Sequence record: OP744025
Reading direction: 5' to 3' (one strand)
Source: Escherichia phage A5-4
DNA length: 64,000 bases
The position numbers and the translations under genes are program-made. Of the stretch, positions 58,944 to 59,310 are shown piece by piece (within the stretch, counting starts at the first letter, position 1; each line of letters begins with the position of its first letter). The notes beneath the pieces were generated by a model. The model was not told where the DNA came from. It ran no database searches and saw only the letters and a list, made by a program, of their open reading frames with translations.

Positions 58944-59046
58944 TATAAAGATAACCTGTTGTTTGTTAAAGTAGAGTCACTATACCTATGTAAAAACCCC
59001 ATGTCAAGACTTTAAATTTAAAAAATTTAGTATAAAATCTATAAAA

Positions 59047-59095
59047 GATCCTTTAAGATCTGTAGATCATATATAAAAAGATCTTATAAAAGATC
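59047..59095. repeat. cluster of five GATC sites within four aaGATCt palindromes
   Basis: GATC at 59047, 59057, 59065, 59080, 59092 in an AT-rich divergent intergenic region. Confidence 0.7.
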
Positions 59096-59120
59096 TTGTT
59101 TTTATTGTTTTTAATAATAA

Positions 59121-59170
59121 TTATGAATGAAATGAATAATTATTATATAATTTATGAATGAAATGAATAA
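59121..59170. repeat. direct repeat ttatgaatgaaatgaataa x2
   Basis: Copies at 59121-59139 and 59152-59170. Confidence 0.7.
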
Positions 59171-59310
59171 ATTATAATGATAAAGGGTTTGGCGAGAGGC
59201 TTCGAGCCAGGGAAATCTAATATAGTATTGTATGCCTAAACGGGCATAAAGGGTTTGACATGTTGGGATAGTCATGTAAGATAGCGAAGGTAAGGTTAAG
59301 AGGAGGGATT

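Follow-up and report, generated by a model that had tools for sequence, protein, structure and literature searches.

What does the divergent, AT-rich spacer at positions 58944-59310 of Escherichia phage A5-4 (sequence record OP744025) do: does it only drive transcription, or does it also start replication? The window analyzed here is the whole 64,000-nucleotide (nt) stretch of this DNA, whose numbering is used throughout, and the complete relative A7_1 (OP795442, 144,828 bp) served for genome-wide comparisons. Our answer is tentative. We give slightly less than an even chance to the reading that the core of the spacer (~59040-59250) would be an iteron-plus-unwinding-element replication origin lying inside an early divergent promoter hub. 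More facts come together under this reading than under any other, namely the AT extreme of the genome, phased direct repeats changing in concert, an initiator-like protein with a probable operator, outward promoters, a conserved inward promoter-like site, and GATC palindromes with a T-rich strand bordering the AT tract.

Over 58400-60000, the window shares 98.5% identity with Escherichia phage A7_1 and 96-97% with UPEC06, A73, W70, and LTH01, all five being ~140-kb myoviruses of the genus Septuagintavirus, subfamily Vequintavirinae. Window position 58944 corresponds to A7_1 position 139769, and the window ends where the A7_1 record ends, right before the large terminase gene. A7_1 is organized in four transcription blocks: a plus block from 140.1 kb through 34 kb (winged-helix gene, small genes, five tRNAs, lysis, terminase, and structural genes), a minus block at 34-64 kb with the replisome genes, a plus block at 64.5-89.5 kb with numerous small genes, and a minus block at 90.5-139.8 kb covering nucleotide metabolism, ligase, and methylase. 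The spacer is the point at which the minus block of 90.5-139.8 kb and the plus block from 140.1 kb diverge. It lies between a minus-strand gene for 93 amino acids (aa) and a plus-strand gene for 128 aa, just as the first-pass annotation had described an AT-rich spacer between the first gene of the minus block and the plus block; it measures 367 bp (27.5% GC), where that annotation had given 370 bp.

Elements of the spacer core

The features of the spacer and its flanking genes are given below, with promoter hits scored as matches out of 12 hexamer positions; the promoter sites of relatives were read by eye rather than scanned.

59044-59098, no strand: array of five AGATCN units (AGATCC at 59046, AGATCT at 59056, AGATCA at 59064, AAGATCTT at 59078-85 and 59090-97).
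59066-59185, no strand: least stable, most AT-rich segment of the genome by AT content and nearest-neighbor free energy (dG), candidate DNA-unwinding element.
59096-59112, plus strand: T-run TTGTTTTTATTGTTTTT, with a T-rich top strand, directly after the last palindrome and unique in the genome.
59109-59170, plus strand: two 31-bp tandem units, each with the exact 19-mer TTATGAATGAAATGAATAA, iteron-like direct repeats.
59180-59257, plus strand: ATAAAGGGTTTG twice (59180-91 and 59246-57), flanking the GC island and the palindrome; the second copy overlaps the palindrome.
59190-59212, plus strand: GC island GGCGAGAGGCTTCGAGCC (GGCGAG...CGAGCC), homologous to Certrevirus CCGTAGCCCGGAGGGCGAGCGTAGCGAGG.
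59231-59248, no strand: palindrome TATGCC-N6-GGCATA, adjoining the -35 of P_R, candidate operator of the winged-helix protein.
58979-59007, minus strand: P_L1, leftward sigma70-like promoter (-35 TTGACA 59007-59002, 17 nt, -10 TATAGT 58984-58979; 11/12).
59011-59038, plus strand: P_R-up, weak rightward promoter-like site, back-to-back with P_L1 (TTTAAA-16-TAAAAT; 9/12).
59255-59282, plus strand: P_R, rightward sigma70-like promoter of the winged-helix gene and the plus block (TTGACA-16-TAAGAT; 10/12).
59311-59697, plus strand: gene of the predicted 128-aa winged-helix DNA-binding protein, phrog_8453, first of the plus block, with a GGAGG ribosome-binding site upstream.
58662-58943, minus strand: 93-aa gene from the list of open reading frames (ORFs), first of the leftward block, function unassigned (phrog_12865 and phrog_4868, E 7e-46 and 3e-12).

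The AT and stability extreme of the 144.8-kb A7_1 genome lies in the spacer at the 100-300 bp scale, by a wide margin. Per 100 bp, the AT content reached 88% at 59066-59185 versus 77% in the next-best region elsewhere in A7_1, and per 200 bp it was 83% at the spacer core versus 72.5%; the nearest-neighbor dG per 120 bp was -117.6 at the core versus -132.8 at the next-best site elsewhere. As the least stable segment of the genome, 59066-59185 has the character of an unwinding element, which supports the reading as an origin. A 54-aa ORF on the minus strand (59111-59275) lies wholly inside the AT-rich repeats and is annotated as a coding sequence only in UPEC06; we judged it spurious.

Next to this tract, TTATGAATGAAATGAATAA occurs exactly twice, at 59121-59139 and 59152-59170, which bears out the two copies reported in the first-pass annotation. 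They lie 31 bp apart, equal to three helical turns, and the 31-bp tandem repeat is the top-scoring one of the window. No further occurrence of the 19-mer, the T-run, or the ATAAAGGGTTTG pair was found in the genome, and the 19-mer was accordingly dropped as a dispersed phage promoter or operator. The iteron-like character thus rests on two exact, unique, and conserved 19-mers, with only two copies present. A73 and W70 carry the same A-to-T change in both 19-mers (TGAATGTAATGAAT), at positions homologous to window 59130 and 59161; this pair is the only change within the 19-mers among members of the genus, in which the spacer is 97% identical and the protein 100% identical. By comparison of these sequences, the two 19-mer copies are evolving in concert.

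On the other side of the T-run, the GATC sites start at 59047, 59057, 59065, 59080, and 59092 (49 bp, 59047-59095), with spacings of 10, 8, 15, and 12 bp. The first-pass annotation had counted five sites within 50 bp, and all of them are where it had placed them; its four aaGATCt palindromes need correction, since exact AAGATCT is present in three copies (59055, 59078, and 59090), two of which extend into the perfect 8-bp palindrome AAGATCTT, and the remaining two sites read AAGATCC and TAGATCA. In A7_1, no other place in the whole 144.8-kb genome has at least four GATC per 50 bp. An excess over expectation was evident against the local composition of the spacer (0.8 sites expected; P of 5 or more, ~0.001) but not at the genome-wide density, at which five GATC fall within 46 bp somewhere in 13% of random placements, or in 9% for the 64-kb window (P of about 0.09-0.13). 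Across A7_1, GATC occurs 855 times in 144,828 bp versus a Markov expectation of 856. Among the palindromic tetramers of this genome, CTAG is strongly avoided (observed/expected, 0.48), CGCG, CATG, CCGG, and GTAC stand at ~0.66-0.73, and GATC at 1.00. Because the GATC count by itself is not significant at the genome-wide density, positional conservation in other genera is the stronger evidence for function.

The array sites form a degenerate tandem unit of ~10-12 bp, and its copy number shifts in steps of one helical turn (10 bp) among near-identical phages: UPEC06 and LTH01 carry a 10-bp insertion, TATAGATCAT, after the position homologous to window 59068, which creates a sixth GATC unit. Homologous copies of the unit number 1-3 in 10 other phages and six in UPEC06 and LTH01, giving an overall range of 1-6. 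The 10-bp indel among close relatives, together with the nonsignificant count at genome-wide density, would fit a degenerate tandem repeat generated by slippage in AT-rich DNA upstream of promoters, with the 19-mers as a recent duplication and no specific function for either. However, six phages share an unchanged 19-mer core, both copies have taken on one and the same substitution, and element order and sequence are conserved across genera with about 30% nucleotide similarity or less (PMC11370258), and we find an absence of function hardly credible.

Within the cluster, GATC is preceded by A in 28 of 28 cases from 11 phages and followed by T in most, and in Ro1 and Hena1 one homologous copy reads AGGTCT. 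It therefore seems that the palindrome is under selection and not only the Dam tetranucleotide. Judged from the aligned relatives, the conserved unit appears to be the AAGATCTT-type palindrome plus the T-run, rather than bare GATC.

Conservation of the module across genera

The same element order was found in at least five genera, Septuagintavirus, Certrevirus, Seunavirus, Mydovirus, and Henunavirus, as well as in Av-05-like phages, and runs from the AGATCT copies through the T-run, two direct repeats, palindromes, and a TTGACA promoter to the winged-helix gene. By VIRIDIC, these genera share about 30% nucleotide similarity or less (PMC11370258), and the flanking 128-aa protein is only 35-57% identical across the genera that keep the module. 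Homologs of this protein were found in 73 phage records of Certrevirus, Seunavirus, Mydovirus, Henunavirus, Av-05/TH18-like phages, and unclassified Serratia and Acinetobacter phages. In every relative locus read, the gene heads the plus-strand block, and a spacer of 270-600 bp separates it from the minus-strand block; a gene is also present at the position equivalent to that of the 93-aa gene.

The spacers form two alignable groups, clades A and B, with element order alike. Clade A comprises this phage, SSBI34, CR9, CR8, phiTE, Kashira, and locus L029, and shows one to three (A/T)AAGATCT copies, a T-rich run, two repeats, the GC island, an imperfect palindrome, and TTGACA; the repeat core TTATGA.TG.A..GAATAA is invariant in six clade A phages. 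Clade B comprises PVP-SE1, FENT2, KB57, KNP2, Ro1, Hena1, and locus L034, with a modified form in Av-05/TH18, and shows AAGATCTT copies, TTATGTTTTATTGTTTTT, and a different repeat pair (ATAAGTTAGT twice). The T-run is kept as TTGTTTTnATTGTTTT in both clades.

At the position equivalent to that of the palindrome beside P_R, the relatives have palindromes of the form TnnnCC-N5/6-GGnnnA, which in clade B read TATTCC-N5-GGGAATAATTAG and stand in two or three copies around the promoter. Both halves change together between groups, as TATGCC/GGCATA, TATTCC/GGAATA (three times), TATAC/GTATA (twice), TGTCCC/GGGACA (twice), and GTGTGCC/GGACACA. A palindrome with TTGTTCC/GGAACAA halves (TTGTTCC/GGGAACAA, three times) even stands beside a distant 233-aa family member in a metagenome-assembled genome (L021); contigs of the other long members proved too short to tell much about gene context. 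Since the halves change together from group to group, the palindrome at P_R is probably the operator of the winged-helix protein.

Several side observations concern the variable parts of the module. In TH18 (L005, 2270-2385) and Av-05 (L035, 2190-2330), the AGATCT array is replaced by ~110 bp of almost pure A+T, rich in TA, which lies downstream of a TTGACA-based promoter-like site. The related phages 24-2-1 and 18-1-2 have partial records that stop no more than a few hundred bp from the homologous gene. This phage and Certrevirus have one GC island (CGTAGCCCGTAGGGTGAGCGTGGCGAAG-like), while in two metagenomic IMG/VR loci (L027, 2117-2390; L028, 223-496) three copies spaced ~120 bp apart lie upstream of the homologous gene; RNA folding of the GC-island region was no better than that of shuffled sequences. 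When the core was searched against plasmids by BLAST, the only match, over 40 bp and not significant (E 0.7), was with 4.8-kb plasmids of Enterobacter and Serratia that have TATAAGATCTT repeats. In the Enterobacter cloacae plasmid AP022235 (L023, 440-490; also Serratia CP091128), an intergenic region holds TATAAGATCTT twice together with TATAAGATTAATAAAA, and this 16-nt stretch is identical to one beside the second repeat in CR9, which may be chance or a shared host-factor site.

The conserved palindromes and T-run could also act as RNA. A P_R-up transcript of ~55-70 nt would fold through the AAGATCTT copies and stop at the T-run, as the leader of the winged-helix gene or as a small RNA. The two copies can pair into an 8-bp hairpin (dG -7.4) followed by G-U5-AUUG-U5, a similar hairpin plus T-run occurs in KB57, PVP-SE1, CR9, and Hena1, the A-to-G change in Ro1 abolishes GATC yet retains a G-U pair, and the minus-strand fold has z = -3.5. 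But the stem contains only two G-C pairs, against ~6 in the evident terminators of the phage, and was not called by the terminator scan; z-scores on the plus strand reach only about -1 to -2, this phage has a weak P_R-up (9/12), no Rfam family matched, and the pairing is inseparable from conservation of the palindromes. An attenuator or short noncoding RNA is, in our view, very unlikely.

Promoters, methylation, and the winged-helix protein

The description of the locus as a divergent AT-rich control region in the first-pass annotation agrees with the strong sigma70-like promoters that face outward on both sides. P_L1 would start transcription near 58972, leaving a leader of ~29 nt, and its -35 (TGTCAA on the plus strand) is conserved in relatives; the TTGACA of P_R is conserved in nearly all of them. 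A second leftward promoter match (58969-58942) overlaps the ATG and is probably not functional for the 93-aa gene. In the surrounding 20 kb (44-64 kb), promoter-like sites scoring at least 10/12 all lie on the coding strand of their block, which argues that host-type promoters are really used. Strong promoter-like sites and small ORFs are also interspersed in a cluster of five tRNA genes (Met, Tyr, Gly, Gln, and Pro) at window 61369-63124, 1.7-3.4 kb downstream of the winged-helix gene.

The third site, P_R-up, points inward and would transcribe into the GATC/AT-rich element. Its homologous -10 reads TAAGAT in CR9, CR8, phiTE, and L029 and GATAAT in SSBI34. Clade B (KB57) and TH18 have a consensus -35 TTGACA at this position, followed after ~17 nt by a -10-like hexamer, so that a promoter-like site reading into the AT tract stands at the same place in the relatives examined.

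These positions bear on the proposal, made in the first-pass annotation, of a methylation-sensitive bidirectional promoter or origin. The distance from the GATC sites to the downstream -35 is ~40-90 bp for the leftward promoter and ~160-210 bp for the rightward one, and none of the sites overlaps the -10 or -35 hexamers of P_L1 or P_R; the array starts 8 nt past the -10 of the weak P_R-up, whose homologous -10 reads TAAGATC only in Certrevirus. Because no GATC falls within the hexamers of either strong promoter, the promoter half of the proposal does not fit the geometry, and the origin half gained from the AT extreme, the unique repeats changing in concert, the cross-genus module, and the initiator-like fold. 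Methylation at the GATCs could still matter, given host Dam and a phage gene for an N6-adenine methylase:

29036-29545, minus strand: small 169-aa N6-adenine DNA methyltransferase with an NPPY motif, possible modifier of the GATC sites (from the ORFs and the A7_1 annotation).

This protein has weak matches to Pfam Dam and TIGR01712 (phage_N6A_met), E 0.04, and is annotated in A7_1 as "DNA N-6-adenine methyltransferase"; N6-A and C5 methylases have been noted for the genus (PMC11370258). With roughly one helical face in common, the five GATCs would make a good SeqA target when hemimethylated.

We then come to the 128-aa protein itself. Against Pfam, NCBIfam, and PDB sequences it had nothing below E 0.08, and only phrog_8453 (function unassigned) matched; the family contains 19 clusters at 50% identity among 1.84 billion representatives. 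The AlphaFold2 model (predicted local distance difference test score, 89.5) shows an N-terminal beta-hairpin, a long helix, a winged helix-turn-helix, and a C-terminal helix. Foldseek against PDB returned weak, generic winged-helix matches only. Among predicted viral structures, the named neighbors were mostly "replisome organizer," "replication initiator protein," "replication protein O," and "replicon initiation protein," with one "winged helix repressor." The best structural neighbors of the model were the N-terminal domains of RepA_N plasmid initiators, DnaD (DnaD-NTD), and phage replisome organizers, and its winged-helix fold with an N-terminal extension superposes on the RepA_N/DnaD-like origin-binding domains; sequence profiles from Pfam, NCBIfam, and PDB sequences did not place it in these families. 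On this predicted fold, the protein is a candidate origin-binding protein and/or autoregulator. Four long family members (P0025, P0027, P0028, and P0029; 233-253 aa) have acidic C-terminal tails ending in VPF, PPF, or TNF, which resemble the tails by which SSB and T7 gp2.5 recruit replisome proteins.

The autoregulator alternative can be taken further. In a purely transcriptional control hub, an autorepressor would sit at the palindrome by P_R and no replication would start; the 19-mers and AGATCT palindromes would then be operators for phage or host regulators, or architectural or UP-like DNA, setting the strength and timing of P_L1, P_R-up, and P_R. Such a hub agrees with the strong outward promoters at the head of both gene blocks and with palindromes that flank the -35 (in clade B also the leader) and whose halves covary with the protein family, distant relative included, a classic autoregulator layout. 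The homolog of one relative is annotated as a transcriptional regulator, the structural and sequence neighbors of the protein include MarR, ArsR, LexA, and Crp-type regulators, and the lack of a detected homolog in rV5-type phages is expected of an accessory regulator. But this explanation does not account for the single most AT-rich, unstable site of a 145-kb genome, for an AGATCT-plus-T-run unit kept across clades with differing other repeats, or for viral structural neighbors named mostly as replication initiators, and the GATC array lies outside the strong promoters. We regard it as the main rival of the origin reading, though less likely than that reading.

The position of the gene also raises the question of packaging. 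If the spacer were a P1-type pac site, the 128-aa protein would act as a small-terminase-like recognizer, and cutting under the control of adenine methylation would start headful packaging rightward, in the direction of the terminase and structural genes. Dam-regulated GATC hexamers make up the P1 pac site, whose clustered short repeats in a headful-packaging phage are indeed similar. The relatives are terminally redundant and circularly permuted, as headful packagers are (including a PhageTerm result for one Vequintavirus), no small terminase is annotated in A7_1, and the winged-helix gene heads the block leading to the large terminase gene TerL, 4.7 kb downstream. Moreover, the family member P0029, which matches DUF6945, is encoded shortly upstream of the genes for portal, capsid, and terminase on a small phage contig (L018), but its match to the family is marginal (E 8e-4). 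In most genera, however, genes for salvage of nicotinamide adenine dinucleotide and not packaging genes follow the winged-helix gene, and the structural neighbors of the 128-aa protein include no terminase small subunit. No public relative record starts at the spacer; the starts are at TerL or, in UPEC06, in another noncoding region. Unlike P1 pac, the spacer has no adjacent terminase-like partner and no two hexamer groups around a cut site. We leave only a faint chance to a pac site.

A candidate origin and its known counterparts

Taking the anatomy, uniqueness, and conservation of the spacer and the predicted protein fold as the observations, we infer all binding and replication steps of an origin as follows. 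P_L1 and P_R would direct host RNA polymerase outward, P_R-up would weakly direct it into the element, and the divergent transcription would leave the DNA between the promoters negatively supercoiled. The 128-aa winged-helix protein, as the first product of P_R, would bind the palindrome at its own promoter and thereby regulate itself, and this protein, or a covarying phage factor, would bind the two phased 19-mers. Binding and supercoiling together might then melt the neighboring 85-88% AT tract, the easiest site of the genome to open; the AAGATCTT palindromes and the T-run would border this tract in the way that GATC-bearing repeats do in the unwinding regions of oriC and P1 oriR. Phage primase/helicase and polymerase would load there, and the P_R-up transcript would perhaps form an R-loop or prime synthesis, in the manner of T4 oriF/oriG and the T7 primary origin. 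By methylating adenines in the five GATCs, host Dam and/or the phage N6-A methylase may lower the stability of the duplex, and after passage of the fork, the hemimethylated GATCs might become a SeqA target. The genus also encodes a T4 endonuclease VII-like resolvase (PMC11370258), which points to a T4-style replication and recombination lifestyle.

A number of points weigh against an origin at this place. Just two iterons are present, whereas iteron plasmids usually carry three to five or more. The spacer has no DnaA box (TTWTNCACA; 8 in the window versus 9.2 expected) and no IHF consensus, and the oriC 13-mer is poorly matched, with 2 mismatches, as it is at 67 places in the window. The palindromes covarying with the protein family fit a plain autoregulated repressor, the winged-helix fold is generic, and because the iterons differ wholly between the clades while the recognition helix is conserved, the protein may not bind the iterons. 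By tblastn (E up to 1e-3; 73 records), no homolog of the protein was detected in rV5/Bas54-type Vequintavirus; if rV5-type phages share the replisome, as we presume, the module cannot be the universal origin of the subfamily. The corresponding spacer of Bas54 is only ~120 bp according to published gene coordinates, no rV5-type sequence having been read.

GC skew gives no help either. Its cumulative minimum is at the spacer, yet the skew turns at every strand switch, so the minimum follows gene orientation and is not independent evidence, and we set it aside. The coding-sense slopes of the four blocks (0.07, 0.15, 0.10, and 0.17 per kb) fit no origin position, and the coding-strand GC skew had no replication component separable from transcription.

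There is, in addition, a second candidate cis-site, a noncoding, repeat-rich region of ~1.3 kb at window 8400-9720, where plus and minus blocks converge and which is a possible alternative origin or pac site. Besides a C-rich run near 9087-9103, it contains two copies each of GTMAACCAAAATGGTTTA, ACTCTGTGGACAAT, and GAGGTGACTCA. Its conservation is limited to the genus (82-91%), it is more variable than the 58944-59310 spacer, and it includes the start of the UPEC06 record. By position, it recalls the transposon-insertion-free intergenic region of ~2.5 kb found in Bas54 by HIDEN-SEQ (10.1101/2025.11.20.689424). Those essentiality data cannot be applied to the spacer, because no homolog of the 128-aa protein was detected in rV5-type phages, and the insertion-free region sits at a different, convergent junction. 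Since the functional steps are all deduced and the counterarguments are real, our confidence in an origin at the spacer is held a little under the midpoint.

The question matters because Vequintavirinae are widely collected for phage therapy. With a short, conserved module of precise bounds and a candidate protein to bind it, direct tests become feasible of where and how replication begins in these phages, of the importance of adenine methylation for the origin of a lytic phage, and of the role of a small, phage-restricted winged-helix family. If the origin is true, it would give an engineering handle (ori plasmids, genome rebooting, and conditional replication); if the spacer is only a promoter hub, it still heads both major early transcription units. 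Our literature search met with no account of a replication origin or an early control region in this part of Vequintavirinae, and the paper describing the genus mentions neither promoters nor origins (PMC11370258).

Among known systems, the spacer can be compared with iteron origins. It resembles P1 oriR, and more loosely F ori2, pSC101, and Vibrio cholerae ori2, in having an AT tract with GATC repeats, direct repeats, and a winged-helix gene. P1 oriR consists of an AT-rich opening region with five GATC-bearing short repeats, phased iterons, and then the gene of an autoregulating winged-helix initiator, and methylation modulates its opening and SeqA binding; work by Abeles and Austin in 1987 and by Brendler and colleagues in 1991 reportedly laid out this GATC and methylation background. 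Unlike these origins, the spacer has two iterons only and no DnaA box, and belongs to a virulent 145-kb phage with its own polymerase and primase/helicase; its protein is a single 128-aa winged-helix domain without a match to a Rep sequence family, in contrast to the two-domain Rep of ~30 kDa. A P1-oriR-like control in a virulent 145-kb myovirus, with a minimal single-domain winged-helix initiator, two iterons, and AAGATCTT/GATC units that would be read through adenine methylation (by host Dam or the phage N6-A methylase, with SeqA) and whose copy number (1-6, in 10-bp steps) would tune initiation, is a specific version that we regard as improbable. Iteron-type origins with Dam sites have been reviewed (PMC5043065, PMC4980987).

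The unwinding region of oriC has AGATCT "ATP-DnaA boxes" within its 13-mers GATCTnTTnTTTT (PMC4285127, PMC5043065). As in Escherichia coli oriC, AGATCT hexamers are followed here by a T-rich top strand, and the GATC density would attract SeqA; unlike oriC, the 13-mer is matched only imperfectly, and there are no 9-mer DnaA boxes to anchor DnaA.

A third group, the promoter-plus-unwinding-element origins, includes T4 oriF/oriG, the T7 primary origin, and the origin of the lactococcal phage c2, which lies in its early/late divergent spacer. The likeness is that of a noncoding AT-rich element downstream of a host-type promoter, here a predicted one, in or beside the early control region, where transcription into the element could give an R-loop or primer. 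These origins do not need a dedicated sequence-specific binding protein and lack iterons and GATC arrays, and in the genus studied here the inward promoter-like site is weak. The predicted protein, for its part, shares a winged helix and N-terminal extension with the N-terminal domains of RepA_N, DnaD, and replisome organizers, which bind origin repeats. Taken together, the architecture varies on origin and control designs already known and does not amount to a new kind of system.

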